This document shows positions 301 to 23,138 of a DNA stretch of 26,417 bases, one piece after another. Source of the stretch: a virus (lineage: Duplodnaviria > Heunggongvirae > Uroviricota > Caudoviricetes); IMG/VR virus record IMGVR_UViG_2703718784_000007; one strand, 5' to 3'. The position numbers and the translations under genes are program-made. How positions within the stretch are numbered: the first letter of the stretch is position 1; each line of letters begins with the position of its first letter. The notes below the pieces were generated by a model that saw only the letters and a program-made list of their open reading frames with translations, was not told the DNA's origin and did no database searches.

Positions 301-729
301 ATGTATTGCCGTGCTGTACCGGTTCTTGTTTTGATATTAGCCAGTCTGACAACTGGCTGCACAAAAGATGTATCGACAAATAATTATGATGCTTCGCTGC
401 ATCACTCAGATAAATTAATAAAGTCGCAAAATTTGAGCTTATCGGAACGTACCCCTGATGCCAGTGAAGAAATCCGGCAGTATGCCATTCAGGTCAGGGA
501 AGCCATAGAAGAACAGTTAAAGGATGCGGGTAAGTATTCAGGAAAAGAGTGTTCACTGAGAATGTATATGGCCCCGAATGGTCTTCTGCTACAGGTTAAA
601 AGAGAAAGCGGTGATCCCGATTTATGTCGTGAAGCGATGAATGCAGTAAAGAATGCTGATATACCATCACCACCGTCTTCAGGAGTATATAAAGCATTTA
701 GAAATGGCGTGCTGGATTTTAAACTCTGA
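301..729 (+). CDS. Lipoprotein with TolA C-terminal (domain III)-like domain; candidate moron
   Basis: ATG at 301 with GGAG upstream; N-terminal signal peptide ending in lipobox-like LTTGC; C-terminal ~90 aa closely resembles E. coli TolA domain III as recalled (GKxCxLR..APxGxLL..GDPxLC...IPxPPS...LDFK). Not verified by database search. Confidence 0.8.
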   Translation: MYCRAVPVLVLILASLTTGCTKDVSTNNYDASLHHSDKLIKSQNLSLSERTPDASEEIRQYAIQVREAIEEQLKDAGKYSGKECSLRMYMAPNGLLLQVKRESGDPDLCREAMNAVKNADIPSPPSSGVYKAFRNGVLDFKL

Positions 730-2197: not shown

Positions 2198-4186
2198 ATG
2201 GCATTTAAACACTACGATGTGGTCAGGGCGGCATCGCCGTCAGACCTTGCTGAACGACTGACACAAAAACTGAAGGAGGGGTGGCAGCCATTTGGCAGCC
2301 CTGTCGCCATCACGCCTTATACCCTGATGCAGGCTATTGCGGCGGAAGGTGATGTCACCACGCCGGTGCTGGTTAAACCATCGGGTGACGGGGAGACGGC
2401 TATCAGCAAGACCGGTGAGCCTGAATATTATTATGTTGTCGCGCTGGCGGGTCAGTCAAATGGTATGTCTTTTGGAGAGGGAGTACCGTTACCTGATTCT
2501 TATGATCGCCCTGATCCGAGAATTAAGCAGCTTGCCCGTCGACGTACCGTTACGCCGCGAGGCGTTCCCTGCACCTATAACGATGTTATTCCGGCAGATC
2601 ATTGTCTTCATGATGTGATGGATATGAGTGAAAAAAATCACCCCCGGGCAGACCTCAATAAAGGTCAGTATGGTTGTGTGGGTCAGGGACTGCATATTGC
2701 CAAAAAACTGTTACCGTTTATACCGGCGAATGCGGGCATTCTTCTGGTTCCATGCTGTCGTGGAGGCTCGGGAGTGACTACAGGTAATGAGGGAACATTT
2801 AACGCCTCTTCCGGGGCAAGCCCTGATTCTGCATTGTGGGGAGCTGATAAGCCGCTGTACCAGGATCTGTTAAGTCGCACGAAAGTCGCGCTGGCTAAAA
2901 ATCCCGGAAATATCCTGCTGGCGGTAATCTGGATGCAGGGGGAGAGTGATCTGGCTTCAGGAAGCCAGAGTCATAATGCTCTTTTTACTGGCATGGTACA
3001 GAAATTCCGTGCTGACATCGCTGATATGTCAGGGCAGTGCGTGGGGGGCTCGGCACTGAGCGTTCCGTGGGTTTGTGGCGATACGACGCATTACTGGAAA
3101 GAAAAATATGCTGCGTCTTATGAAACTGTATACGGTGGATATAAAAATAAGGCAGCGCAGAATATTCACTTTGTCCCTTTCATGGTTGATGGAAGCGGGG
3201 TAAATGTGCAGACCAATAATCCGGCAGAAGATCCTGATATTGAAGGTATTGGCTACTCCGGTTCGAAGTGGCGAGACAGTTCTGTCAGCTGGACGTCAGG
3301 TGACAGGGCAAGCCATTTCGGTTCATGGGCGCGGCGTGGAATTATTTCAGATCGTCTTGCAACCGCAATTCTGACCCACGCAGGCAAATACCCGGCGTTT
3401 ATCACCGGGCGGTCAGAAACGGTAGTTGCAGGAGATGAACGGGAAAACGTTACATCCGGAAATTTCCCGTCACCTGTGGAGGATGCTGCGTTATCACAGG
3501 ATGCACCTCAGAGAAGAACGGTTGTTGAGTATAATTCAGCTGTTGAGAAAGACAGCCTCGGTGGTAACTGGGCAGCCCAGCACTGGAATGCCCGGGACGG
3601 TGTCGCCGAGTTTGTTAATGATGAAAGCAGACAGGTGCTGAAGATTAAGCAGCATGAGGGCAAACAGGGACCGTGGATGCTGTCAGCAGGAGTATCAGCT
3701 GAAGATGCCCGTGCTCTGTATGAAAATGGCGGTGAAATAAAACTTGAATTCAGGTTGCCGGATGGTACCCAGGTTGCAGATGACAAATACCTCTTTGGTG
3801 TTTACCTGCCAGTTTCCGGGTGGACTCAGGAAGGCAACGGCAGCAATATGATGGCCTCCTTTTTCACTCAGACAAAAGCCAGTAACCTGGATGTCATGTA
3901 TCACGGTAAAACACAGCCTAATACAAAAATTGAGTCATTCGGTGCGGTTAATAACAACTGGCACACGCTTGTCTTTAAATATAAAGGAGGCGGCAATCAC
4001 CAGGTTATTCCGGTACTTGACGGAGAAGAGAAAACAGGTTTTGCACTGAAAGAAGGTCCGGTCACTTCTGCCTTTACGGTGGATAACATCACAGTGACAG
4101 GTATCAGCGCAAATCAGGGAAAATCTTATCCTGTCATGTTCCGCAGTATCATGGTAAGCATTAACCAGGCAACCTCTTCATCATAA
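2198..4186 (+). CDS. nanS: Prophage sialate O-acetylesterase (NanS-p family; SGNH/SASA esterase domain plus C-terminal domains)
   Basis: 662-aa ORF with GGGAGGA RBS; GQSNG-type catalytic serine motif (VALAGQSNGMSFGEG); size and position immediately upstream of the lysis genes as in Stx-type lambdoid prophages. Confidence 0.85.
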   Translation: MAFKHYDVVRAASPSDLAERLTQKLKEGWQPFGSPVAITPYTLMQAIAAEGDVTTPVLVKPSGDGETAISKTGEPEYYYVVALAGQSNGMSFGEGVPLPDSYDRPDPRIKQLARRRTVTPRGVPCTYNDVIPADHCLHDVMDMSEKNHPRADLNKGQYGCVGQGLHIAKKLLPFIPANAGILLVPCCRGGSGVTTGNEGTFNASSGASPDSALWGADKPLYQDLLSRTKVALAKNPGNILLAVIWMQGESDLASGSQSHNALFTGMVQKFRADIADMSGQCVGGSALSVPWVCGDTTHYWKEKYAASYETVYGGYKNKAAQNIHFVPFMVDGSGVNVQTNNPAEDPDIEGIGYSGSKWRDSSVSWTSGDRASHFGSWARRGIISDRLATAILTHAGKYPAFITGRSETVVAGDERENVTSGNFPSPVEDAALSQDAPQRRTVVEYNSAVEKDSLGGNWAAQHWNARDGVAEFVNDESRQVLKIKQHEGKQGPWMLSAGVSAEDARALYENGGEIKLEFRLPDGTQVADDKYLFGVYLPVSGWTQEGNGSNMMASFFTQTKASNLDVMYHGKTQPNTKIESFGAVNNNWHTLVFKYKGGGNHQVIPVLDGEEKTGFALKEGPVTSAFTVDNITVTGISANQGKSYPVMFRSIMVSINQATSSS

Positions 4187-5947: not shown

Positions 5948-6442
5948 ATGAACCGCGTTCTGTGTGTGGTCATTATTGCCTTGCTGGTGGCCTGTGGTGC
6001 GCTTAGTCTGGGGCTGAATCATTACCGTGATAACGCCATCACCTACAAAGCGCAGCGCGATAAAAAAGCCAGAGAGCTGGAGCTGGCAAACGCAACCATT
6101 ACTGACATGCAGCAGCGCCAGCGTGATGTTGCTGCGCTTGATGCCAGATACTCAAGGGAATTAGCCGATGCGAGAGCTGAAAATGAAACTCTGCGTGCTG
6201 ATGTTGCCGCTGGTCGTAAGCGCCTGCGGCTCAACGCCACCGGCCCCGGTACCGTGCGTGAAGCCACCGGCACCTCCGGCGTGGATAATGCAACCGGCCC
6301 CCGACTGGCAGACACCGCTGAACGGGATTATTTCAACCTCAGAGAACGGTTGATGACAATGCAGAAGCAGCTGGAAGGGGCGCAGGAATATATACGCACT
6401 CAGTGCACTAAGCTGGCTTTTTATTATCCGGAGGATACATGA
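5948..6442 (+). CDS. Rz: Rz i-spanin
   Basis: Strong similarity to lambda Rz as recalled ([16 protein letters not shown]..., ...[23 protein letters not shown]); N-terminal TM helix. Confidence 0.9.
6168..6353 (+). CDS. Rz1: Rz1 o-spanin lipoprotein, embedded in the +1 frame of Rz
   Basis: Lipobox LVVSAC, proline-rich ([27 protein letters not shown]), matching lambda Rz1; fully nested within Rz. Confidence 0.8.
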
Positions 6443-6663
6443 AGAAATTACGGGTAACCGTAGAACCTTTTCAGGGAACAATTCCGTTCCGTATTTTGCA
6501 GCGTGGTCGTGTTCTTGTTGAAGGTTCGTTCAGTGGTAAATGTACGCAATTACACTCCCGGACCTTTCAGGTGAATGCCACGAATGAAGAGCTAACCGTT
6601 GAGTGTACGATGAATGCCGCTAAATGCCGCATGGTATCCGCTGCATTACAGCCAGTGTGTTGA
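6439..6663 (+). CDS. Hypothetical protein (74 aa), start overlaps the Rz stop
   Basis: ATGA overlap with Rz stop; GGAGGA RBS 5 nt upstream; no recognisable domain. Confidence 0.45.
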
Positions 6664-6971
6664 GCGACCTTATTATCCATGGCGCGGTATTGTCGCCGTA
6701 TTCCCGTATTAACAGAGACCGCAGCCCGACAGGGAGACTCCTCTGCGCGAGTGTGCGGGGATAATCAAAAACGATACACACCGGGGTTTACCGCGTTAAC
6801 GGAGCGCGGCGTTGTCCCCTCATGGTCGCTGGTCCGGTGCGATGGTGGAAGAAACCGGACGATGTGTTACCTCGCAAGCTCTGTTATGTCATGTGTCTGA
6901 TTTGTGATTTAAGTCGGATAATTGTCGTTGCCATTAAGCAGAGGATTGATGACCGACAGGGTGGCATTGTT

Positions 6972-6988
6972 AGAATAAGACTTATTCT
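6972..6988. promoter_or_regulatory. Perfect 17-bp palindrome AGAATAAG-A-CTTATTCT immediately upstream of the TonB-like gene (candidate operator or RBS-sequestering hairpin)
   Basis: 8-bp arms around one central base; AT-rich; ends 14 nt before the ATG at 7003. Confidence 0.3.
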
Positions 6989-7002
6989 TATCTGTGCCGG
7001 GA

Positions 7003-7335
7003 ATGAAAATGAAAAGAAATCTTCCGTTAATTATTTTGTTGTCTTCTCTGGTTATGGGCTGTACGCAACATAAAACAGATATGCCCCGACAGTTGGTTAA
7101 GGCATTACCACAATATCCGGCCTATGCAGCGGCAAATTATATAAAGGGACGGGTTGATGTGAAGTTTGATATTGGTGCTGATGGTACTGTCACCCGAATT
7201 GAGTTTATCCGTTCAGAGCCGCACCATCTGTTTGATGAGCAGGTTGTAAAAGCGATGGCAAAATGGCGATTTGAGAAGGACAGGCCGCGTAAAGGCGTGA
7301 AGAAAACGTTTATCTTTAGTCCTTCTGCACCCTGA
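7003..7335 (+). CDS. Lipoprotein with TonB C-terminal-domain-like fold; candidate moron
   Basis: Signal peptide with lipobox LVMGC (MKMKRNLPLIILLSSLVMGC); remainder resembles the TonB C-terminal domain as recalled (PQYPA.A......G.V.VKFD...DG.V.....I.S.P...F...V..AM..WR.E). Start chosen at ATG 7003; GTG 6994 or ATG 7009 also possible. Confidence 0.8.
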   Translation: MKMKRNLPLIILLSSLVMGCTQHKTDMPRQLVKALPQYPAYAAANYIKGRVDVKFDIGADGTVTRIEFIRSEPHHLFDEQVVKAMAKWRFEKDRPRKGVKKTFIFSPSAP

Positions 7336-7466
7336 TTATTTCATCAGAAATTAATTATCACTCTGTTGTTATTCTGTACATCCCGGCAGGGTAAGTCTTG
7401 TTCCGTCGGATATGAAGATGAAATATTGTTGGAGGACAGTGGGTACCTGCTCCTGTAACCGAACGT

Positions 7467-7708: not shown

Positions 7709-8074
7709 ATGGCTCAGCTTCGTACACTCCAGAGCAGAATCAAAACACTGAATACCCGACGGGTGAATATTCTGAAGGGTGAACAGCGTCGTGTCAGTGG
7801 CAGTGCACGTGTTTCCCTCAAGCGTCATATCTGGCTCAGGGACGCCGGGCAGTGCTGTCTCTGTGGTCGTGTGGTTGACCTCTGTGACAGTGAACTCGAT
7901 CACCGAATTGCACTTCAGTTCGGTGGTGGTAATGAGGAGACGAATCTCTGGACGCTCTGTACCGAATGCCATCGACAAAAGTCTGTTCGTGAAGCGGCGA
8001 GTGGTATGCCGGACCCGACACTGCCGGAGGTGTCCGGAGGTAGTGGCAGAGCGGACGACATCATCGGACTGTAA
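7709..8074 (+). CDS. HNH endonuclease (terminase-associated, HK97 gp74-like)
   Basis: Cys-pair zinc finger and HNH motif (CCLCG...DHRIALQFGG.N...NLWTLCTECHRQK); located immediately upstream of the cos region and terminase genes. Confidence 0.85.
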   Translation: MAQLRTLQSRIKTLNTRRVNILKGEQRRVSGSARVSLKRHIWLRDAGQCCLCGRVVDLCDSELDHRIALQFGGGNEETNLWTLCTECHRQKSVREAASGMPDPTLPEVSGGSGRADDIIGL

Positions 8075-8363: not shown

Positions 8364-8927
8364 GTGCTGACAACGCAAAAACGAAAATTTGCGCTGGCGC
8401 TCATGTCCGGGAAAAACAAAACAGCGTCAGCCATTGCCGCCGGTTATTCGGCGAAGACAGCCAGGGTTAAAGGCTCGCAGCTGGCAAAAGATCCGGAGGT
8501 GCTTGCGTTTATAGCCCGTAAACAGTGCGAGACGGTGGAGGTGGATGAGGTTCCTGTTTACCGGCAGAAAAAATCAGAGCAGGAGGATAAACCCCGTCGC
8601 CGTGAGGCGGCTGCAATACCACAGCCGGACGAAACAAATCCGGAGATGCCACCGCCCGTGGTGATATCTCCTGGTATTGAGTATATGGAGGACGGTCTTC
8701 CCGATCCTGTGAAAGCGATGGGGCGTCTTCTGGTGGAGAACATTAATACCGACCCCAGGCTGGCGCTGGATGCGGCTTATAAGCTGGCGCAGTTCACGCA
8801 CCACAAAAAAGGGGATGCCGGTAAAAAATCGGCAAAAGGTGACGCGGCGAAAAAAGCGGCTAACCGTTTTGCGGTGCCACCACCACCCCGCCTGGTGGTG
8901 AATAATGATAATGAGGGCAACGGATGA
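8364..8927 (+). CDS. Terminase small subunit
   Basis: GTG start with GGAGGAGG RBS; N-terminal HTH-type motif (ASAIAAGYSAKTARVKGSQL); stop overlaps the TerL start. Confidence 0.8.
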   Translation: MLTTQKRKFALALMSGKNKTASAIAAGYSAKTARVKGSQLAKDPEVLAFIARKQCETVEVDEVPVYRQKKSEQEDKPRRREAAAIPQPDETNPEMPPPVVISPGIEYMEDGLPDPVKAMGRLLVENINTDPRLALDAAYKLAQFTHHKKGDAGKKSAKGDAAKKAANRFAVPPPPRLVVNNDNEGNG

Positions 8928-10585
8928 TACCAGTGTGGAGCACGGCCTGCCCGGACTGGGCAGAGCGTCTGAAAAAGGGGCTGTCGATTATTCCGTCTCC
9001 GATTTACCCGGAGCAGGCCGCACATGCCCTGGCGATTTTTAAACAACTGCGGATTGTGGATGCACCGGGCAGCCCGACGTTCGGGGAGTCCTGTGCAGCG
9101 TGGGTGTTTGACCTGGTGGCGGCCCTGTTTGGCTCCTACGATGCGCAGACCGGTGTACGCCATATAAAGGAAGTGTTCATTCTGATACCGAAAAAAAACA
9201 GCAAGTCCACGCTGGCCGCGGGGATCATGATGACGGCGCTGTTACTGAACTGGCGGCAGGCGGCGGGCTACACCATTCTGGCCCCGACCGTGGAGGTGGC
9301 GGCTAACGCCTTCAACCCTGCCAGGGATATGGTTCGACGGGACGATGATCTGGATGACCTCTGTCAGGTGCAGACACATATCCGGACCATCACCCATCGG
9401 GTGACGGACACCACCCTTAAGGTGGTGGCTGCCGATCCGAATACGGTGTCCGGTATCAAGTCCGTGGGGACGCTGATTGATGAACTGTGGTTATTTGGCA
9501 AGCAGTACAAAGCGGAGGACATGTTACGTGAAGCCATAGGCGGCCTTGCCTCCCGCCCGGAAGGGTTTGTGGTGTATACGACCACCCAGTCGAATGAGCC
9601 GCCAGCCGGAGTGTTCAGACAGAAACTGCAGTACGCCCGGGATGTCCGTGACGGCAAAATTCATGATCCGCACTTTCTGCCGGTGATATTTGAACACCCT
9701 CCTGAAATGGTGGAAAGCGGGGCTCACCTGCTGATGGAAAACCTCGCCATGGTCAATCCGAATCTCGGTTATTCGGTGGATGAGGCTTTTCTGTACCGGG
9801 AGTACCGTAAAGCCCGGGAGGCTGGTGAGGAAGCATTTCGTGGCTTCATGTCAAAACACGCCAATGTGGAAATCGGTCTTGCCCTGCGTTCTGACCGCTG
9901 GGCGGGCGCGGATTTCTGGGAGCAGCAGGGCAGGCGCGTCAGCCTGGACGATATCCTGCAGCGCGCTGATGTGGTGACGGTGGGGATTGACGGCGGGGGC
10001 CTGGATGATCTGCTGGGAATGTACGTGATTGGCCGTGACAGGGAAACCCGCGAATGGCTGGGCTGGGGCCATGCCTGGGCGCATGAAACCGCGGTGCTCA
10101 GACGGAAGAGTGAGGCATCCCGGTTTCAGGATTTTGTGGCCTGTGGAGACATGACGATTGTCCGTCGGGTCGGGGATGACACGGCGGAAGTGGCGGAGTA
10201 TGTGCGTCGTATCCATGAGGCTGAGTTACTGGATCATATCGGTATTGACCCGTCAGGTGTGGGGCAGATTCTGGATTCACTGGCGGAAGCCGGGATCCCC
10301 GACGGAATTGTTGTGGGGATAAGCCAGGGCTGGAAGCTGGGCGGGGCCATCAAAACCACCGAGCGCAAACTGGCTGAGGGAGTGCTGGTGCATGGTGGTC
10401 AGCCACTGATGGCCTGGTGCGTTGGCAATGCCCGGGTGGAGACTAAAGGTAACGCCATCCTTATTACCAAACAGGCCAGCGGACGGGGGAAAATTGACCC
10501 GCTGATGGCGCTGTTCAATGCGGTATCCCTGATGTCCCTGAATCCGGGGCCGAAAAAGAAAGAATATGCGGTTTTTTTCATATAA
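8924..10585 (+). CDS. Terminase large subunit (HK97-like)
   Basis: 553 aa; ATGA overlap with TerS; position and size; ATPase and nuclease regions not verified by search. Confidence 0.85.
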   Translation: MIPVWSTACPDWAERLKKGLSIIPSPIYPEQAAHALAIFKQLRIVDAPGSPTFGESCAAWVFDLVAALFGSYDAQTGVRHIKEVFILIPKKNSKSTLAAGIMMTALLLNWRQAAGYTILAPTVEVAANAFNPARDMVRRDDDLDDLCQVQTHIRTITHRVTDTTLKVVAADPNTVSGIKSVGTLIDELWLFGKQYKAEDMLREAIGGLASRPEGFVVYTTTQSNEPPAGVFRQKLQYARDVRDGKIHDPHFLPVIFEHPPEMVESGAHLLMENLAMVNPNLGYSVDEAFLYREYRKAREAGEEAFRGFMSKHANVEIGLALRSDRWAGADFWEQQGRRVSLDDILQRADVVTVGIDGGGLDDLLGMYVIGRDRETREWLGWGHAWAHETAVLRRKSEASRFQDFVACGDMTIVRRVGDDTAEVAEYVRRIHEAELLDHIGIDPSGVGQILDSLAEAGIPDGIVVGISQGWKLGGAIKTTERKLAEGVLVHGGQPLMAWCVGNARVETKGNAILITKQASGRGKIDPLMALFNAVSLMSLNPGPKKKEYAVFFI

Positions 10586-10648: not shown

Positions 10649-12586
10649 GTGACTCTTAAACGGGCCTGCTCCCTGCTGACGGTGAAATCCTTCAGTGAGG
10701 ATGAGCGGGTGATCACCGGGATTGCGTCAACGCCTTCTCCGGATCGGGATGGTGACATCCTGGAGCCGGAGGGCGCGGAGTTTGGCAGTGCGATCCCGTT
10801 TCTCTGGCAGCATGACCATTCCCGCCCGGTGGGGCAGTGTACGGTGCGCCGGGTCAGCGAAGGGCTGGAAATCACGGCAACACTGGCGAAGCCCGTGCCG
10901 GATATGCCATCGCAACTGGCTGCCCGGCTGGATGAGGCCTGGGCGGCCATTAAGACCGGGCTGGTCAGGGGGCTGTCCGTGGGCTTCCGTCCTCATGAAT
11001 ACACCTTTCTGGACGGAGGCGGACTGCATTTTCTGCGCTGGGAACTGATGGAGGTGTCTGCCGTCACCGTGCCCGCGAATGCGGAATGCACCATCCGGAC
11101 CATTAAATCTTACGACCGCCAGTTTTCTGCCGCGTCCGGCAACCGGAAACCGGTGGTGAAAATCGCATCTTCTGCCGGCGCTGCGGCACAGTCAACAACC
11201 GTTTTTCATAAGGAAAAGACCATAATGAATATTGGCGAACAGATTAAAAGTTTTGAAAACAAGCGTGCAGCGCTGGCAGCCTCCCTTGAGGAGGTCATGA
11301 CCAAAGCCGCAGAGGAAGGGCGCACGCTGGGTGTGGAGGAGGAAGAGCATTACGACAACACCGCAGCGGAAATCCGTCAGGTGGATGCGCACCTGAAGCG
11401 CCTGCGTGAACTGGAAGCCGGTAAGGCCGCCACGGCGCAGCCGGTGAAACAGGCCGGTAACGGGAATGTGGCCGCGGTGGCTTCTGCGCCGGTGATCCGT
11501 GTGGAGCAGAAACTGGATAAGGGGATTGGTTTCGCACGTTTTGCCAAATCACTGGCTGCGGCTAAAGGTGTCCGCTCTGAAGCCCTGGAAGTGGCCCGTC
11601 GTCAGTATCCGGATGACAGTCGTCTGCATCATGTCCTGAAATCGGCAGTGGGCGCGGGGACCACCACGGATCCGCAGTGGGCAGGCAGCCTGTCTGAATA
11701 TCAGGAATACGCACAGGACTTTATTGATTACCTGCGTCCTCAGACCATTATCGGGCGATTTGGTCAGGGCGGGATCCCTGCACTTCGTCAGGTGCCGTTC
11801 AATATCCGTGTGCACGCCCAGGTGTCCGGCGGTGCTGCCGGCTGGGTGGGTGAGGGTAAGGCAAAACCCCTGACGAAGTTTGATTTTGAATCCATCACCT
11901 TCAGTCATGCGAAGGTGTCGGCCATTGCGGTACTGACGGAAGAATTGATCTGTTTTTCCAGTCCGGCTGCTGATGCACTGGTCCGTAATGCGCTGGCGGA
12001 AGCGGTGGTGGCGCGTCTGGATACAGACTTTGTGGACCCGAAAAAAGCGGCGGTGGCAGATGTCTCCCCGGCGTCCATCACCCATGATGTGAAGGGCACG
12101 GCATCAAGCGGTAACCCGGATGCGGATGCAGAGGCTGCGTTTGGACAGTTTGTGGCAGCAAACCTGCAGCCCACCGGTGCGGTCTGGCTGATGTCCAGCA
12201 CCAATGCCCTGGCACTGTCCATGCGTAAAAATGCGCTGGGTCAGAAAGAATACCCGGACATGACCCTGCTGGGTGGCTCCTTCCAGGGGCTGCCGGTGAT
12301 TGTCTCCCAGTACGTGGGTGACCAGCTGGTGCTGGTGAATGCCCCGGATATTTATCTGGCGGATGACGGCGGCGTGGCAGTGGATATGTCCCGCGAGGCA
12401 TCACTGGAAATGCAGTCTGAGCCGACCGGCGACAGTACCACGCCGTCGCCGGTGGAGCTGGTTTCCATGTTCCAGACAGGCAGCGTGGCCATCCGTGCGG
12501 AGCGCTGGATCAACTGGCGTCGTCGCCGTACCGCGGCGGTGGCGGTGATCACCGGAGTGAACTACGGCAGTGCGTCCGGCGGCTGA
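10649..12586 (+). CDS. Prohead protease - scaffold (delta-like) - major capsid protein fusion, HK97 family
   Basis: GTG start with AGGAGG RBS; N-terminal ~150 aa with HK97 prohead protease hallmarks (HDHSRPVGQ, GLSVGF, EVSAVTVPAN); central coiled-coil segment; C-terminal ~400 aa MCP-like; internal in-frame ATG at 11225 preceded by AAGGAAAAG. Confidence 0.85.
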   Translation: MTLKRACSLLTVKSFSEDERVITGIASTPSPDRDGDILEPEGAEFGSAIPFLWQHDHSRPVGQCTVRRVSEGLEITATLAKPVPDMPSQLAARLDEAWAAIKTGLVRGLSVGFRPHEYTFLDGGGLHFLRWELMEVSAVTVPANAECTIRTIKSYDRQFSAASGNRKPVVKIASSAGAAAQSTTVFHKEKTIMNIGEQIKSFENKRAALAASLEEVMTKAAEEGRTLGVEEEEHYDNTAAEIRQVDAHLKRLRELEAGKAATAQPVKQAGNGNVAAVASAPVIRVEQKLDKGIGFARFAKSLAAAKGVRSEALEVARRQYPDDSRLHHVLKSAVGAGTTTDPQWAGSLSEYQEYAQDFIDYLRPQTIIGRFGQGGIPALRQVPFNIRVHAQVSGGAAGWVGEGKAKPLTKFDFESITFSHAKVSAIAVLTEELICFSSPAADALVRNALAEAVVARLDTDFVDPKKAAVADVSPASITHDVKGTASSGNPDADAEAAFGQFVAANLQPTGAVWLMSSTNALALSMRKNALGQKEYPDMTLLGGSFQGLPVIVSQYVGDQLVLVNAPDIYLADDGGVAVDMSREASLEMQSEPTGDSTTPSPVELVSMFQTGSVAIRAERWINWRRRRTAAVAVITGVNYGSASGG

Positions 12587-12622: not shown

Positions 12623-12797
12623 AACAGGTTATGGCAAAGATCCGATATCTGCAGGGCACGCATGATGCCCGGGCCGGGGATATCCGTGATGTGGCACAGC
12701 CGTGTGCGGAGGTGCTGGTTCGCCTGGGAAAGGCGGAGTACATCACGGTGCGACGTCCGGCAGGTCAGAAAAAGAAACGTGATGCGGAGCATGGCGA

Positions 12798-14162
12798 ATG
12801 TGGAACCTTTTACGGCGAACCCGAAAAAACCAGAAATCAGGACGTGACGTAAGAGAGGCGGGCTGGACCAGCCTGTTTCAGGCGGTGGCTGAGCCCTTTT
12901 CCGGTGCCTGGCAGCAGGGCGTGAAAGCCGATCCTGAAGCCGTCCTCTCCTTTCATGCGGTGTTTGCATGTATTTCGCTGATATCCCAGGATATCGCCAA
13001 AATGCGGCTGCGTCTTATGCAGACGGATGCGCAGGGGATACGCAGGGAAACGCGCCGGGGGGATATTGCCCGCCTCTGTCGTCGTCCCAACGCCCAGCAG
13101 AACCGCATCCAGTTTTTTGAACTGTGGCTGAACGCCAAACTGCGTCACGGCAATACGGTGGTGCTGAAAATCCGTAATGCCCGGGGGCAGATCAAAGAAC
13201 TGCGTATTCTGGACTGGAACCGGGTTGAACCTCTGGTGGCGGATGACGGCGAGGTGTTCTACCGCATCACGCCGGACCGGAACTGCGGGATCACTGAGGC
13301 GGTGACGGTGCCTGCCCGGGAAGTGATCCACGACCGGTTTAACTGTTTTTTTCATCCGCTTATAGGATTGCCGCCGGTGTATGCCGCCGGGCTGGCGGCC
13401 ACGCAGGGGCATCATATTCAGGAAAATTCGACGTCTTTTTTCAGAAATGGCGGCAGGCCGTCCGGGGTGATTGAGATCCCCGGCAGTATTACGGAAGAAA
13501 ATGCGAAAAAACTGAAGAGCAACTGGGACAGCGGGTATACAGGCGAAAATGCGGGGAAAACGGCCATTCTGAGCAACGGGGCAAAATACAACCCCACGAC
13601 GTTTTCACCGGTGGATGCGCAGACGGTGGAACAACTGAAGATGACCGCTGAAATTGTCTGTTCGGTGTTCCGTGTCCCGGCCTACAAGATTGGCGTGGGA
13701 CAACCGCCTTCCAGTGACAACGTGGAGGCGCTGGAGCAGCAGTATTATTCCCAGTGCCTGCAGACACTGATTGAGTCCATTGAGCTGTTACTGGATGAGG
13801 CGCTGGAAACGGGGGAAAACGAGAGTACGGAATTTGATGTCACCACGCTGCTGAGAATGGACAGTGAGCGGCGCATGAAAACGCTGGGGGATGCGGTGAA
13901 AAATACGCTTCTCACGCCCAATGAAGCCCGAAAACGGGAGAACCTGCCGCCCCTGGCAGGAGGCGATGCACTGTATCTTCAGCAGCAGAACTACAGTCTG
14001 GAAGCGTTGTCCCGCCGTGATGCCCGTGAGGATCCGTTCGCGTCGTCCGGTAAAACAGCTTCCGTGCCTCAGGCGGTCGCTGCATCTGACGGTAATAAGG
14101 CAATCACTGAAACAGAGCATGACGCGGTGAAGGCGATGTTCAGGGGGATTCTGAAAAAATGA
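12798..14162 (+). CDS. Portal protein (HK97 family)
   Basis: 454 aa; first ATG after an in-frame stop at 12780, GGAG RBS; motifs typical of HK97-type portals (AVFACISLISQDIAKM, FFRNGGRPSGV, NAGKTAILSNG). Confidence 0.85.
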   Translation: MWNLLRRTRKNQKSGRDVREAGWTSLFQAVAEPFSGAWQQGVKADPEAVLSFHAVFACISLISQDIAKMRLRLMQTDAQGIRRETRRGDIARLCRRPNAQQNRIQFFELWLNAKLRHGNTVVLKIRNARGQIKELRILDWNRVEPLVADDGEVFYRITPDRNCGITEAVTVPAREVIHDRFNCFFHPLIGLPPVYAAGLAATQGHHIQENSTSFFRNGGRPSGVIEIPGSITEENAKKLKSNWDSGYTGENAGKTAILSNGAKYNPTTFSPVDAQTVEQLKMTAEIVCSVFRVPAYKIGVGQPPSSDNVEALEQQYYSQCLQTLIESIELLLDEALETGENESTEFDVTTLLRMDSERRMKTLGDAVKNTLLTPNEARKRENLPPLAGGDALYLQQQNYSLEALSRRDAREDPFASSGKTASVPQAVAASDGNKAITETEHDAVKAMFRGILKK

Positions 14163-15253
14163 ATGAACGTGAACTGTCCATTATCCGTGCGCTGGGTGAA
14201 GAATTTTCCGCGGTGCTGGCGGATTTACAGCGCACATTTGAGGAGAAAATAGCCGCGCAGGCACAAACGTTTGAAGAAAAACTGGCTTCCCTGTCTGTGG
14301 TATTACAGAAGTGCGTGACGGGCGATGATGTGCGTCCGATGCTTGAACAGATAGTGAAGGAGGCGGTAAGCCATATTCCTGTTCCGCGTGACGGTCGTGA
14401 CTACGATCCGGAAGTACTGCAGAAGGCGGTGAATGATGCGGTCGCAAATATTCCGCAGCCGGCGGACGGTAAAAGTCTCACCCCGGATGATNNNNNNNNN
14501 NNNNNNNNNNNNNNNNNNNNNNNNNNGCGTCCGATGCTTGAACAGATGGTGAAAGAGGCGCTAAGCCATATCCCTGTTCCGCGTGACGGTCGTGACTACG
14601 ATCCGGAAGTACTGCAGAAGGCGGTGAATGATGCGGTCGCAAATATTCCGCAGCCGGCAGACGGTAAAAGTCTCACCCCGGATGATNNGCGTCCGATGCT
14701 TGAACAGATGGTGAAGGAGGCGGTAAGCCATATTCCTGTTCCGCGTGATGGTCGTGACTATGATCCCGATGTTCTGCAGAAGGCTGTTCTGGATGCGGTG
14801 AGTGCCCTGCCGGCTCCGCAGGACGGGCGTGATGCCACGGCACTGGAAATACTCCCCGCCATTGACGATCAAAAATCCTTTCCCCGGGGCACGTATGCCA
14901 CACACCTGGGCGGACTCTGGCGGGCGTATGAAAAAACGCACGGGATGCGGGGATGGGAATGTCTGGTTGACGGGGTGGCGGATATTGACGTCAGCATGAC
15001 GGGTGAACGGTTGTTCTCTGTGGTGGTCCGGCAGAGCAGTGGCCAGCGTACGGAAAAAACATTTTCCCTGCCGGTGATGCTCTACCGCGGTGTGTTCAGA
15101 GCCGGTGAAACCTACCACCCCGGCGATACGGTGACGTGGGGCGGCTCGCTGTGGCACAGCAACAGTATGACCGGTGATAAACCCGGAGAAGCTCATTCAT
15201 CAGGCTGGACCCTGGCTGCAAAACGTGGGCGGGATGCTGGAGGCGGAAAATGA
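14159..15253 (+). CDS. Hypothetical phage structural protein with N-terminal coiled coil and tandem ~54-aa repeats; sequence interrupted by assembly gaps
   Basis: ATGA overlap with portal stop; three visible copies of RPMLEQ.VKEA.SHIPVPRDGRDYDPEVLQKAV.DAV...P.P.DG...; N-runs at 14492-14526 and 14687-14688 lie inside the repeats, so length and frame are provisional. Confidence 0.6.
   Translation: MNERELSIIRALGEEFSAVLADLQRTFEEKIAAQAQTFEEKLASLSVVLQKCVTGDDVRPMLEQIVKEAVSHIPVPRDGRDYDPEVLQKAVNDAVANIPQPADGKSLTPDDXXXXXXXXXXXXRPMLEQMVKEALSHIPVPRDGRDYDPEVLQKAVNDAVANIPQPADGKSLTPDDXRPMLEQMVKEAVSHIPVPRDGRDYDPDVLQKAVLDAVSALPAPQDGRDATALEILPAIDDQKSFPRGTYATHLGGLWRAYEKTHGMRGWECLVDGVADIDVSMTGERLFSVVVRQSSGQRTEKTFSLPVMLYRGVFRAGETYHPGDTVTWGGSLWHSNSMTGDKPGEAHSSGWTLAAKRGRDAGGGK
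14332..14830 (+). repeat. Tandem 162-bp (54-codon) coding repeats, at least 3 copies
   Basis: Copies begin at 14332, 14527 and 14689 (gcgtccgatgcttgaacag...); period 162 bp between copies 2 and 3. Confidence 0.75.
14492..14526. other. Assembly gap (35 N) inside the tandem repeat; second 2-N gap at 14687-14688
   Basis: N characters in the sequence. Confidence 1.
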
Positions 15254-15576
15254 CGGCATTACTGACACTGGAAGAGATCAAGGCACATCTGCGTGTCGAC
15301 CATGACGCGGATGATGACATGCTGATGGAGAAGGTTCGTCAGGCTACCGCCGTGCTGCTGGCCTACATTCAGGGCAGCCGGGATAAGGTGATTCGTGAGG
15401 ACGGTGAACTGATCCCGGGCGAGGCATTAACCCGGATGAAGGGGGCTGCCATGCGACTGACCGGGATGCTGTACCGGAATCCGGATCTTGCGGAGCGGGA
15501 AGAACTGCTTCAGGGGGAGCTGCCGTTTTCTGTTTCCGTGCTGATTTACGATTTGCGTTGTCCGACGGTGTTATGA
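15250..15576 (+). CDS. Head-tail connector protein (phage gp6-like)
   Basis: ATGA overlap with upstream stop; N-terminus LTLEEIKAHLRVDHDADDDML typical of gp6-like connectors. Confidence 0.7.
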   Translation: MTALLTLEEIKAHLRVDHDADDDMLMEKVRQATAVLLAYIQGSRDKVIREDGELIPGEALTRMKGAAMRLTGMLYRNPDLAEREELLQGELPFSVSVLIYDLRCPTVL

Positions 15577-18244: not shown

Positions 18245-21200
18245 ATGGCGACGTTACGTGAACTGATTATCAAAATTTCGGCAAATTCACAGTCATTCCA
18301 GTCGGAGATCCAGCGGGCATCCCGTATGGGCAGTGAATATTACCGGACCCTGCAGAATGGCGGACGTCAGGCTGCTGCGGCAGCCAGGGAGCAGCGCCGG
18401 GCTCTGGCTGAGCTGAACAGCCAGTTGACGGAAATCCGCGCTTCGGCTGTCGGAATGACCGGTGCGTTTGCCGGTGCCTTTGCCACCGGACACCTGATTT
18501 CGCTGGCGGATGAATGGAGCTCCGTGAATGCCCGTCTGAAACAGGCGTCGCAGTCATCAGATGAATTTTCGTCATCACAGAAAGTACTGATGGATATCAG
18601 CCAGCGGACAGGCACCGCATTTTCGGATAATGCGGCCCTGTTTGCCCGTTCGGCTGCCTCGATGCGTGAATATGGTTACAGTGCTGATGATGTGCTGAAG
18701 GTGACGGAGGCCATTTCGACAGGGCTGAAAATTTCCGGTGCCAGTACGGCAGAGGCGGGTTCGGTGATCACCCAGTTCAGCCAGGCGCTGGCACAGGGTG
18801 TGTTACGCGGTGAGGAATTTAATTCGGTCAATGAAAGTGGGGACCGGATCATTCGCGCACTGGCTGCAGGCATGGGCGTGGCCCGTAAAGATCTGAAGGC
18901 GATGGCGGACGATGGTCAACTGACGGCGGATAAAGTCGTTCCCGCGTTAATCAGCCAGCTGGGGATATTGCGTGATGAATATGCAGCCATGCCGGAAACG
19001 GTGGCTGACGGGATCACGAAGGTGGAAAACGCCTTTATGGCCTGGGTGGGTGGCGCGAATGAGGCCAGCGGAGCGACGAAAACGCTCTCCGGCGTGCTGA
19101 ACGGTGTGGCCGGAAATATTGATACCGTGGCAACAGCTGCGGGTGTGCTGGTTGCTGTCGGGGTCGCCCGGTACTTTGGCAATATGGCATCCGGTGTGGG
19201 AAAGGCCACGACAGAACTGCTTGCTGCGAAGTCTGGCACTGTTGCCCTGGCAGCGGCGCAGGCAGATGCTGCGGTTCAGGTGCAACGTAAGGCGGCGGCT
19301 GACGCTCTGGCGGCAGAACGTGCCTGGCAACTGGCACAGGCAGAACTCGCCGTGGCCAGAAATACCAGTGCGGAGGCGCTGGTCACACAGAATGCCGTCG
19401 CAAAACGTCGGGCCATGATTGTGGCCAATGCTGCACTGGTGCAGTCGAATCATGCAGTGGCGGCCTCGGGGAAGGCGCTGGAGAATGCCACGTCGGTTAC
19501 GGGAATGCTGAAAAGTGGCGCTGCATCCCTGCTTTCTCTGGTCGGCGGGATACCCGGTTTACTGATGCTTGGGGCCGGTGCCTGGTACACGGTGTACCAG
19601 CGTCAGGAACAGGCCAGGGAGTCCGCGCGCCAGTATGCATCGACGATTGATGAAATCCGGGCAAAGCTGCCAGGAATGACCCTTCCGGAACTGGCTGATA
19701 ATGAGGGTAAAACCCGCGAAGCACTGGAAGAGCAGAATCGTCTGATTGCTGAGCAGGAAAGTAAAGTCCGGGGACTGAAAACACAGATTGCTGACTATCA
19801 GCGCTGGCTGCAGGAAAATCCACAGGGTGGTTCAGGTGCGGAGATTATAACCCACGGCCTTGCTGAGGCAACCGGCAGGCTGGCGGTTGAACAGTCACGA
19901 CTGACACAGATGCAGGAAAGGGCGAGGTCTGTACAGGAAACGCTGGCGTCACTGGAGTACAACCGTGTAGCGAGGATACGTGAGGAGGCGGCAGAGCAGA
20001 ACAGGGCATACCAGGCATTACTGCAGATGAATGTTCAGCATACGGAATTCAACCGCCTGCTGGGGCTGGGTAATGAACTGCTGCAACAGCGTCAGGGACT
20101 GGCGAGTGTACCGCTGCGACTGCCACAGGCCACTCTGGATGATAAACAGCAGAGCGCCCTGAATAACACAGAGCGTCAACTTGCCCTGTCCCGGCGGAAA
20201 GGGGAAGAAAAAGAGCGTGCCCGGCTGGGGTATGCGGCGGATGACCTTGGTCTGGTGGGGGATACGTATCAGGAGGCGAGGCAGCGTTACATCCGTAATT
20301 CGATGGAAGCCTGGCGCAATAATGAGGCGAATAAACCCAAATCCCGGGGCGGAAAATCTGAGACGGAAAAAGCGGAAGACAGTTTTTCCCGTCTGCTGAA
20401 GCAGCAGAAGGAACAACTGGGACTGGCAGGGAAGAATACAGAACTGGCAAAACTGAAATACCAGACCTCGCAGGGCGAGCTGAAAACCCTGACGGAGATA
20501 CAGAAGCAGGAGCTGCTGCGCAATGCTGCCCTGATTGACCAGAAGAAAATCCGGGAGCAGTTACGGGCCCGGGAGGAGACCCTGAAAAATGATAATGCAG
20601 ACGCAAGGGCATCAAATGACGCAGAGCTGCTGGGGTACGGGCAGGGTGAGCGGGGCCGTGAACGGATGCGGGAGCTGCAGCAGATTCGTGACGGCTACCG
20701 CCAGAAGGATGCGGACCTGCAGTCTCAGTATCAGACAGGGGATATCAGTGAGGATTTTTACAGACAGGCGCTGGCGCAGAATGCGCAGTATCTGAGTGAA
20801 CGCCTTAAAGACCAGGAGGCTTTTTATGCCGAATCGGATGCGCAGCGTGCTGACTGGCAGAAAGGACTGCAGGAGGGGGTCAGCAACTGGGTGGACAGCG
20901 CATCAGATTACGCTTCACAGGCAGCACAGCTTGCGACAGACGGTATCTCAGGGATGGTAAGTAACATCACGGATATGCTGAACGGAAATAAAGTGGAATG
21001 GCGCAGCTGGGCTGCATCAATCCTGCAGGAAATATCAAAAGTTCTTATGAATGCGGCCATTGTCAACGGCATTAAGATGGCGGCAAACAGTATGTCCGGT
21101 GCAGGAGGATTTTTCGGCAGTATAGGCAACTGGCTGGGTGGCGCGGTGGCAAATGCAAAAGGCGGCGTTTATACCTCGGCAAACCTGAGTGCATACAGTA

Positions 21201-21511
21201 ACAGTATTGTGGACACGCCCACGTACTTTGCCTTTGCAAAAGGGGCAGGGCTGATGGGGGAGGCCGGACCTGAAGCCATAATGCCCCTGACCCGGGCAGC
21301 GGATGGTTCACTCGGCGTGCGTGCGGTGGGCAGCATGAACGGCAGTGCGGGTCTGGTGTATTCTCCGGTGTACCACATCGCCATTCAGAATGACGGCGCT
21401 AACGGGCAGATAGGGCCGGAAGCGGCGGGCACCCTTGTGCAACTGATTGACCAGCGGGTACAGGCGGTGATGCTGTCCATGCGACGTGACGGGGGAATGC
21501 TGAGTGGATGA
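18245..21511 (+). CDS. H: Tail tape measure protein
   Basis: 1088 aa; Ala/Gln-rich coiled-coil composition; position after G/GT. Confidence 0.9.
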   Translation: MATLRELIIKISANSQSFQSEIQRASRMGSEYYRTLQNGGRQAAAAAREQRRALAELNSQLTEIRASAVGMTGAFAGAFATGHLISLADEWSSVNARLKQASQSSDEFSSSQKVLMDISQRTGTAFSDNAALFARSAASMREYGYSADDVLKVTEAISTGLKISGASTAEAGSVITQFSQALAQGVLRGEEFNSVNESGDRIIRALAAGMGVARKDLKAMADDGQLTADKVVPALISQLGILRDEYAAMPETVADGITKVENAFMAWVGGANEASGATKTLSGVLNGVAGNIDTVATAAGVLVAVGVARYFGNMASGVGKATTELLAAKSGTVALAAAQADAAVQVQRKAAADALAAERAWQLAQAELAVARNTSAEALVTQNAVAKRRAMIVANAALVQSNHAVAASGKALENATSVTGMLKSGAASLLSLVGGIPGLLMLGAGAWYTVYQRQEQARESARQYASTIDEIRAKLPGMTLPELADNEGKTREALEEQNRLIAEQESKVRGLKTQIADYQRWLQENPQGGSGAEIITHGLAEATGRLAVEQSRLTQMQERARSVQETLASLEYNRVARIREEAAEQNRAYQALLQMNVQHTEFNRLLGLGNELLQQRQGLASVPLRLPQATLDDKQQSALNNTERQLALSRRKGEEKERARLGYAADDLGLVGDTYQEARQRYIRNSMEAWRNNEANKPKSRGGKSETEKAEDSFSRLLKQQKEQLGLAGKNTELAKLKYQTSQGELKTLTEIQKQELLRNAALIDQKKIREQLRAREETLKNDNADARASNDAELLGYGQGERGRERMRELQQIRDGYRQKDADLQSQYQTGDISEDFYRQALAQNAQYLSERLKDQEAFYAESDAQRADWQKGLQEGVSNWVDSASDYASQAAQLATDGISGMVSNITDMLNGNKVEWRSWAASILQEISKVLMNAAIVNGIKMAANSMSGAGGFFGSIGNWLGGAVANAKGGVYTSANLSAYSNSIVDTPTYFAFAKGAGLMGEAGPEAIMPLTRAADGSLGVRAVGSMNGSAGLVYSPVYHIAIQNDGANGQIGPEAAGTLVQLIDQRVQAVMLSMRRDGGMLSG

Positions 21512-22043: not shown

Positions 22044-23138
22044 ATGAAAAAAATGACAGTGGCACTTTCTGCTGTAGCAGTTGCAGTGATGTTTGCTGCG
22101 GGGGCGCAGGCAGCAGAAGTTTATAATAAAGATGGTAATAAACTGGATCTTTACGGGCGTGCAACCGCTCTGCATTACTTCTCGGATGATAAAGGTAATG
22201 ACGGAGATCAGACTTACGCTCGTCTCGGCTTTAAAGGCGAAACGCAGATTAATGATCAACTGACCGGATTTGGTCAGTGGGAATACCAGTTCTCTGGTAA
22301 CAAAACGGAATCTGAAGGTTCCGCGGGAAATAAAACCCGTCTGGCATTTGCAGGTCTGAGATTTGCTGATGTTGGTAGCATTGATTACGGTCGTAACTAC
22401 GGTATTGCTTACGATGTCGGATCATATACTGACGTACTGCCAGAGTTTGGTGGTGATGGCTGGACTCAGACCGATAACTTTATGACTGCCCGAACTTCCG
22501 GAGTTCTGACCTACCGTAATACAGATTTCTTTGGGCTGGTTGATGGTCTGAATTTTGCGGCGCAGTATCAGGGCAAAAATGAGCGCGATGACCTCCAGAA
22601 GGCCAATGGTGATGGGTATGGTTTCTCAGCCAGCTATGAGTTTGATGGTTTTGGTCTCGTAGCGGCGTACACGAAATCTGACCGTACTGATAAGCAGGTT
22701 AATGGAGGAAGCTCTGTTGCCAGTGGTAAATATGCTGAAATGTGGGGGGCTGGTCTGAAATATGATGCCAATAATCTGTATATTGCGACAATATATTCAG
22801 AGACCCAAAATATGACGGCTTTTGGCGATAAGGTTAACGGCATTGCGGATAAGGCAGAAAACGTTGAAGCTGTAGCGCAATATCAGTTTGATTTTGGTTT
22901 ACGTCCATCACTGGCATTCCTGCAGTCTCGTGGGCAGGAGGTTATAGTTGGTGGGAAAAACTATGGGGATCAGGACCTGGTTAAATATATTGATGTTGGA
23001 GCAACATATTACTTCAACAAAAATATGTCTACCTATGTTGATTATAAAATTAACCTGATTGACGAAAACAAATTTACTCAGAAAGCCGGTATTACTACAG
23101 ATGATATTGTTGCTGTGGGTATGACTTATCAGTTCTGA
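22044..23138 (+). CDS. Outer membrane general porin (OmpC/OmpF/PhoE family); moron inside the tail module
   Basis: Signal peptide [38 protein letters not shown]; porin hallmarks (FGLRPS..., C-terminal ...YQF); located between tail genes M and L. Confidence 0.9.

Follow-up and report, generated by a model that had tools for sequence, protein, structure and literature searches.

Between the portal gene and the head-tail adaptor gene of a 26,417-nt phage sequence (IMG/VR record IMGVR_UViG_2703718784_000007; the window is this whole stretch) lies an open reading frame (ORF), 14159-15253 on the plus strand and called X throughout, which stays open across 364 codons, 13 of them translating to an ambiguous residue. 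The locus raises the question of whether X is a gene in its own right or the detached 3' half of a portal gene, and, if the former, where in the virion its product might act. The window holds the late region of an Escherichia coli prophage that is lambdoid, long-tailed and of the Shiga toxin (Stx) phage type; its closest database matches are E. coli prophages and converting phages for Stx1a, Stx2a and Stx2c. At least one copy of the locus is carried by 1246 of 5426 complete E. coli genomes (about a quarter), and the closest closed genome is 96.3% identical to the window locus over 2.2 kb.

Judged by comparison with its relatives, X is an intact phage head-module gene, kept by selection and separate from that of the portal protein. 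We regard it as a real gene because it lacks a portal domain, because its start codon, Shine-Dalgarno (SD)-like element and ATGA overlap with the portal stop codon are conserved, because it stands as a separate ORF elsewhere, and because its ratio of nonsynonymous to synonymous substitution rates (dN/dS) is 0.15-0.23. The first-pass annotation, made from the letters of the window, had placed X between portal and connector, correctly, as the upstream gene matches PF04860 and the downstream, gp6-like adaptor gene matches PF05135. It missed the tie to the portal, namely the coupling and, in many E. coli prophages, the in-frame fusion, from which come the 'portal' mislabels of related sequences.

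Start, junction and selection of X

The absence of a portal domain was most clearly seen in the related locus L001, where the X homologue (6001-7224) gave no match to PF04860 or TIGR01537 and the 454-aa ORF upstream of it matched both models end to end. The same homologue matches phrog_1289 (E 2e-197) and positions 455-859 of phrog_2271 (E 3.5e-264), two families that are both named 'portal protein' and of which the latter models a fused protein of 859 positions. By these profile matches X is a clear member of the phrog_1289 family, corresponding to the C-terminal half of phrog_2271; no model for X was found in NCBIfam. RefSeq calls X proteins 'phage portal protein' or 'phage gp6-like head-tail connector protein'; on the domain scans X has neither domain, and these names have been transferred from fused alleles or adjoining genes.

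X begins within the last codons of the portal gene and is read in the -1 frame with respect to it. The ATG of X overlaps the portal stop codon as ATGA, an arrangement that recurs at all 81 junctions from IMG/VR and in 19 further loci, from other Enterobacterales. An SD-like element, AGGGGG or its equivalent AGAGGA in other Enterobacterales, precedes the start by about 11-13 nt, and the N-terminal sequence MNERELS(I/L)IRALGEEFS is conserved across Escherichia, Klebsiella and other Enterobacterales. These conserved signals show that X is translated from its own ATG behind an SD-like element, and because this ATG overlaps the portal stop codon, its synthesis is expected to be coupled to that of the portal protein.

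Separate portal and X ORFs are present in Klebsiella, in Salmonella phage FSL SP-016, in phages BP-4795 and 1717 and in a Rhizobium phage, a distribution by which the split arrangement is the ancestral one, universal beyond E. coli. Within E. coli, one extra G in the G5 tract of the SD-like element (G6) brings portal and X into a single frame. The G6 form was found in 29 of the 81 IMG/VR loci, with an open frame of 386-490 codons 5' of the X start (459 in most), and on at least four junction haplotypes; its exact 69-mer occurs in 747 complete E. coli records, as compared to 29 for the G5 form on the same haplotype. Phage 2851 carries the in-frame fusion as one 859-aa 'portal', the record of phage 1717 remarks on the same fusion for CP-933V, and a distant 1237-aa protein combines a portal domain, about 20 modules and the C-terminal domain of X. 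Phage 2851 is reported by Strauch et al. (2008) to have been isolated as an infectious, lysogenising phage. By a Rosetta-stone argument, these natural fusions suggest that X directly contacts the portal. As a separate observation, one extra base in either the G5 or the A6 tract, both within the last 20 nt of the portal gene, would fuse portal and X; no A7 allele was present among the 81 loci.

Substitution rates indicate that X is under purifying selection in both states, with a dN/dS of 0.185 in split alleles and 0.152 in fused ones, and across genera its C-terminal domain is the most conserved part. The suggestion in the first-pass annotation that this may be a hypervariable locus thus holds for the number of repeat units and not for the sequence, which evolves at a dN/dS of about 0.2. 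X also keeps constant company: the order of a gene fusing prohead protease and major capsid protein (MCP), the portal gene and X was found in the window and in every informative locus, at least 25 related and two distant. The loci with enough flanking sequence came from Klebsiella, Salmonella phage FSL SP-016, 25 GTDB representative loci (almost all Enterobacterales, Pseudomonas or Marinobacter), Rhizobium phage RHph_X2_26 and two distant metagenomic contigs. In the latter two (L118, 8917-15900; L119, 8860-15863), a glycosyltransferase and several methyltransferase genes, not neck genes, lie 3' of portal and X, and these clusters might serve the modification of virion protein or DNA.

Protein architecture and position in the virion

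A phmmer scan of 1.84 billion representatives of 50% identity clusters (E <= 1e-3) returned 5380 clusters for the X family. Among the 150 matches listed, lengths range from 85 to 1237 aa, most of them being about 200-860 aa, and a single protein contains as many as 14 repeat matches. Three regions were distinguished in AlphaFold2 (AF2) models, whose mean predicted local distance difference test (pLDDT) scores were 87.9 for a one-unit version and 92.8 for the C-terminal domain alone. The N-terminus, read by the first-pass annotation as a coiled coil, is modelled as one long helix (residues 3-49), whilst in a simple heptad test this helix scored 0.54 (background 0.48), without a clear register; the coiled-coil reading is thus partly supported. 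The tandem repeats of 54 aa follow, each modelled as two short helices split by Pro/Asp/Gly loops (IPxPxDGxD...); in the first unit the helices span residues 55-71 and 84-97, with the loop PVPRDGRDYDP between them. Within each unit, two helix-loop half-modules of about 27 aa resemble one another (z = 7.5 against shuffles), and two distant members (P0128 and P0204) contain at least 20 such 27-aa modules.

The globular C-terminus that had been noticed from the sequence reaches a pLDDT of about 96, and it comprises two modules resembling the carbohydrate-binding module (CBM) families 5/12 around a beta-hairpin insert. The model shows the small three-stranded beta module with exposed aromatics that characterises a CBM5/12 fold. 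PF02839 scored 18.3 bits (E 0.0024) on the E. coli homologue, below its gathering score of 26.2 bits, and 20-24.8 bits on other members, and it appears as a precomputed domain for Klebsiella members. A sequence search of the PDB gave weak matches to the CBM motif only, the BFVD neighbours are collagen-repeat, ChiC_BD and tail-fibre proteins, and in a profile comparison X matched a tail-fibre PHROG. Homologues from the Rhizobium phage and Marinobacter contain collagen GXY runs, as do P0297 and P0353 in the form of PF01391, and such runs would imply that these homologues form trimers; the window protein itself has no Gly-X-Y run, such runs being confined to some distant homologues. In charge, the stalk is acidic (pI 4.6-4.7) and the C-terminal domain close to neutral.

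From these features we propose, with low confidence and as something short of an even chance, that X is an accessory fibre of the portal vertex with a glycan-binding tip that aids adsorption. The N-terminal helix would dock at the portal, near the C-terminal tail of the portal protein, a low-complexity stretch of about 75 residues ending in ...MFRGILKK*; such docking, we infer, is why fusion by G insertion persists and is common. The helix-loop modules would form an acidic, segmented and probably trimeric stalk, its length set by the number of units, which may shift through slippage or unequal recombination between the 162-bp units. By analogy with the head fibres of phi29, the fibritin whiskers of T4 and SPP1 gp12, the C-terminal domain would bind a conserved envelope glycan and help reversible adsorption. 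We favour an external fibre because the tip and the collagen-like segments are typical of exposed fibres and the stalk is acidic. The fibre role raised by the first-pass annotation is thus a reasonable reading, given the helix-loop modules, the CBM5/12-like tip, the collagen-like runs of homologues and the tail-fibre match; its other candidate, decoration of the capsid surface, is not indicated, the linkage being to the portal.

Several points weigh against an exposed fibre. The fusions join X to the C-terminus of the portal protein, which in solved portals faces the capsid interior, and this counts against exposure outside the virion. The conservation of the C-terminal domain across genera is, moreover, more like that of a protein binding an invariant partner than that of a host-range determinant. 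These points may be reconciled with an external fibre if G6 alleles still make free X from its own SD-like element and ATG, and if the prohead protease trims the copy borne by the portal.

The same points lead to the strongest alternative, which we consider unlikely yet serious: that X is an internal head protein on the portal crown, detachable or, in G6 alleles, a covalent extension of the portal into the capsid, where it would organise DNA or be released at infection. The in-frame fusions to the portal C-terminus, common in E. coli and present in one distant lineage, fit this placement, as do the purifying selection that persists in fused alleles, the linkage of X to the genes for portal and capsid, which is kept at loci with different neck genes downstream, the roughly 1:1 translation with the portal that coupling would give, and a C-terminal domain conserved as if for a constant partner (peptidoglycan, DNA or a phage protein, for example). 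Against this, X and its homologues show hallmarks of exposed fibres: collagen-like runs, modules like CBM5/12 and a likeness to the tips of tail fibres; a strongly acidic stalk is awkward beside packed DNA, and scans of Pfam and PHROG gave no match of X to MuF (PF04233/Phage_Mu_F) or to internal or ejection protein families.

An improbable third possibility is that X acts in assembly only, as a factor tethered to the portal that recruits the protease-capsid fusion in the manner of a scaffold, is removed or degraded by the prohead protease and is absent from mature virions. X always occurs alongside this unusual protease-MCP head type, its stalk is acidic and helical, as are many scaffolding proteins, and a variable length would be tolerable in a tether. 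Scaffolds are not known to possess a conserved double CBM5/12-like domain or collagen-like segments, however, and the capsid fusion protein already has an internal coiled-coil segment, the usual HK97-type substitute for a scaffold (delta domain).

The junction itself allows two further readings. In split (G5) alleles, a programmed -1 frameshift near the end of the portal gene, by a slip on G GGG G or G AAA AAA, could yield some portal-X fusion in the manner of gpG/gpGT; X does lie in the -1 frame, G5 and A6 stand just 5' of the stop codon with the SD-like element upstream, and the G6 alleles indicate that a fused product is viable. We nevertheless hold this quite improbable. No slippery heptamer is conserved at the junction, and no canonical X XXY YYZ site was found among the variants compared: most relatives read CTG AGA AAA TGA or CTG CGA AAA TGA, others CTG AAA AAA TGA, and other genera ...ACC AAA TGA. 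All relatives also keep the start codon and SD-like element of X.

Far less credible is the reading that RefSeq applies through PGAP, in which the split arrangement is a single pseudogene, 'phage portal protein, frameshifted', and X is the 3' half of a portal gene in a decaying prophage. This label arises because portal-X fusions are common in E. coli, and the fused 859-position model phrog_2271 agrees with it. It is wrong. Outside E. coli the two genes are as a rule separate, and the 454-aa portal covers PF04860 and TIGR01537 in full; split alleles, too, show purifying selection on X, and it is the fusion that a single extra G creates. We therefore rejected the pseudogene on the grounds of selection and the conserved start.

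Combining the fibre with the fusions, we consider it possible, if rather doubtful, that X is a fibre borne by the C-terminal tail of the portal, that E. coli prophages switch its attachment between non-covalent (G5) and covalent (G6, 859 aa) by a one-nucleotide change, and that its length is tuned by gain and loss of 54-aa units. If so, either the portal crown carries, within the capsid, a long, acidic fibre with a glycan-binding tip, which would be an internal portal appendage of a new kind, or the C-terminal tail of the portal protein emerges from the particle, at odds with solved portals.

Repeat units, gaps and copy number

The first-pass annotation counted at least three 162-bp repeats in X and took two runs of N as a sign that the assembler could not resolve their number. 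Three units (A, B and C) were indeed found, and the runs, of 35 N and 2 N, are the sole non-ACGT bases of the window. Each run follows ...CCGGATGAT (ending GATGAT) and precedes GCGTCCGATG, the same phase of the unit, at which intact units carry the GT of a GTG (Val) codon; the runs are thus unresolved repeat junctions, with copy number left unsettled by the assembler, as had been claimed. Tandem Repeats Finder reported no tandem array in the window, probably due to these runs.

The length of the 35-N run is not real sequence. Spacing between units was measured from the motif coding for PRDGRDYD in about 85 related loci, and 251 of the 253 spacings were 162 nt; a spacing of 195 nt was found in the window only, and the remaining one, of 324 nt (L121), appears to reflect a unit missed by the motif pattern. 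None of the relatives has a 33-nt insertion as in the window, and in three contigs with matching flanks unit B follows unit A at once, with GTG at the join: L126 and L127, whose 4.5-kb left flank is 100% identical, and L125 (99.9%). The frame is kept across the gap, 35 N and a g making up 12 codons, only by coincidence. Despite the 2-N run, units B and C show the natural spacing of 162 nt.

Because L125, L126 and L127 join A to B, the simplest true gene is A-B-C, with 1062 nt, 353 aa and GT in place of both N runs. Copy number is uncertain, as the first-pass annotation held, and additional B-type units may be present, giving a length of 353 or 353 + 54n aa with at least three units in the window. 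The contigs L125, L126 and L127 themselves end within the array, and a near-identical scaffold, L120, has a 100-N run within its own.

We compared copy number among related prophages, as the first-pass annotation had proposed, and found 1-7 units. Gap-free alleles in closed E. coli genomes have 1, 2, 3, 4 or 5 units (the places matched by one 2.2-kb query measuring 1844, 2005, 2169, 2330 and 2492 nt), gap-free phage records have 3-5, and IMG/VR loci have 3-7, with proteins of 353, 407, 461, 515 and 569 aa. Loci that share the portal protein exactly, and their flanks to at least 98.9% identity, had 2, 2, 4 or 5 units. Unit number is a real copy-number polymorphism, and its changes stay in frame because 162 is 3 x 54. 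That the repeats are an assembly artefact has next to no probability: N runs do sit at unit junctions, and in assemblies of short reads the array is often reduced to a single unit or interrupted, but gap-free arrays of 2-7 units with a 162-nt period exist in closed genomes and phage records, and units A, B and C differ in sequence. Concerted evolution of the units was considered and rejected, as homogenisation is weak: mean unit identity within a locus (0.90) barely exceeds that between loci (0.87).

Short-read data have left their mark on this family. In the collection, 800 blocks contain the identical portal protein, and in 717 of them the longest carrying contig is below 10 kb, and many database X proteins are partial at contig ends. 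Some proteins of 245 aa with one unit (P0008) share the exact N- and C-termini of the window protein, which fits collapse by a short-read assembler; true one-unit alleles also exist, for example in phage Lys8385Vzw. As unit number differs among otherwise near-identical prophages, it is a candidate typing marker and a trap for prophage comparison from short reads, and the 162-bp array is a recurrent source of contig breaks, collapses and N runs in assemblies of Stx-producing E. coli (STEC).

Surrounding genes and known systems

The features of the window are collected in Table 1. Its 5' part runs from a NanS-p-type esterase gene through genes for lysozyme, Rz, an HNH endonuclease and the small (TerS) and large (TerL) terminase subunits to the head module, and the adaptor gene (Ad1) is followed by genes for head closure, a gp10-like protein, tail completion, the tail tube, G/T and the tape measure protein. 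The 662-aa esterase is presumably a NanS-p-type 9-O-acetyl-sialic-acid esterase, typical of Stx prophages. An HNH gene next to the terminase is a usual association in HK97-like cos phages. In the 645-aa ORF, a coiled-coil-like segment lies between the Peptidase_S78 protease and the HK97-fold capsid parts, and the 73-aa ORF between capsid and portal genes is annotated in every related phage record examined. A complete porin gene within the tail-gene block, 3' of the tape measure gene and an M-like ORF and 5' of a lambda I-like gene, looks like lysogenic-conversion cargo. In L002 (NZ_CP038374.1), RefSeq labels the gene for tail assembly protein T (7111-7391) 'frameshifted', which is what would be expected of the normal G/GT programmed frameshift, not damage.

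Table 1. Positions of X, its parts and the surrounding genes in the window.
Feature	Position	Strand	Remarks
Small ORF with TolA C-terminal domain	301-729	+	PF06519, E 3e-22; 5' of lysis genes
662-aa protein	2198-4186	+	DUF1737, SASA esterase and DUF6645
HNH endonuclease gene	7709-8074	+	directly 5' of small terminase gene; same in Klebsiella loci L086-L088
TerS gene	8364-8927		
TerL gene	8924-10585		
Prohead protease-major capsid protein fusion gene	10649-12586	+	645 aa; PF04586 and PF05065
Conserved 73-aa ORF	12631-12852	+	phrog_829, unknown function; 55-nt overlap with portal start
HK97-family portal gene	12798-14162	+	454 aa; PF04860, E 8e-82; TIGR01537, E 2e-105; phrog_2271 positions 1-451
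G5 tract in AGGGGG	14143-14147	+	SD-like, 11 nt 5' of X start; G5/G6 polymorphic site
A6 tract and ATGA overlap	14154-14162	+	A6 14154-14159; X ATG 14159-14161; portal TGA 14160-14162
ORF X	14159-15253	+	between portal and Ad1 adaptor genes
N-terminal long helix of X	14165-14305	+	residues 3-49; AF2 model m486aeb406f3c
Repeat unit A	14332-14493	+	162 nt, 54 aa
35-N scaffold gap	14492-14526		junction of units A and B
Repeat unit B	14527-14688	+	97% identity to A
2-N run	14687-14688		at GT of boundary GTG codon between units B and C
Repeat unit C	14689-14850	+	terminal and divergent; 74% identity to A; runs into C-terminal domain
C-terminal beta domain of X	14822-15250	+	143 aa, predicted all-beta; two CBM5/12-like modules; most conserved part of family
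Ad1 (gp6-like) head-tail adaptor gene	15250-15576	+	PF05135, phrog_40; start overlaps X stop
Tape measure gene	18245-21511		
Gram-negative porin gene	22044-23138	+	complete; 364 aa; PF00267, E 4e-143

X sequences are common and already in databases under wrong names. The mis-annotation of X is on a very large scale: about one in four complete E. coli genomes, and all the long-tailed Stx-phage records examined, have it as 'phage portal protein', as a 'frameshifted' pseudogene or as 'gp6-like connector'. In the searchable literature, neither the function of the family nor its repeat polymorphism nor the G5/G6 fusion switch was found described. X represents a very large, uncharacterised family in a fixed trio with the portal and protease-capsid fusion genes, and locating the protein and its ligand would add a part to the HK97-like head and neck list.

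By its position immediately 3' of the portal gene, X resembles the genes of SPP1 gp7 and Mu gpF (MuF), but unlike these proteins it has no MuF domain. A link of X to the portal C-terminus would likewise imply the capsid interior, as for the C-terminal barrel of the P22 portal and for MuF proteins, and in fused alleles the portal sequence continues into a long helix. These comparisons take gp7, MuF proteins and the P22 barrel as the literature describes them, and for X they cover the family scans, which were negative. The phi29 head fibre reportedly has a repeating helix-turn-helix motif, which the helix-loop modules of X would resemble.

The closest parallels are phi29 gp8.5, T4 fibritin (wac) and SPP1 gp12, trimeric accessory fibres that are dispensable and sit on the phage head or neck; their stalk is helical or collagen-like, and a role in adhesion to the cell wall is ascribed to their distal domain (PMC7602432). 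No match of X to any of the three was found in sequence or fold, although the collagen GXY runs of some X homologues recall the collagen-like gp12. With the CBM5/12 domains of Serratia ChiB, Streptomyces ChiC and Erwinia EGZ (PF02839), the likeness is qualified by a score below the gathering threshold, by the pairing of two modules in one 143-aa domain and by binding that is predicted. Whilst phi29 gp8.5 and SPP1 gp12 bind hexamer or quasi-3-fold sites of the capsid and fibritin binds gp13/14, X adjoins the portal and is coupled, sometimes fused, to it. X further differs from gp8.5, fibritin and gp12 in its CBM5/12-like tip and in a unit number that varies among near-identical phages, and its obligatory coupling and frequent fusion to the portal set it apart from known accessory fibres whose tips bind carbohydrate.

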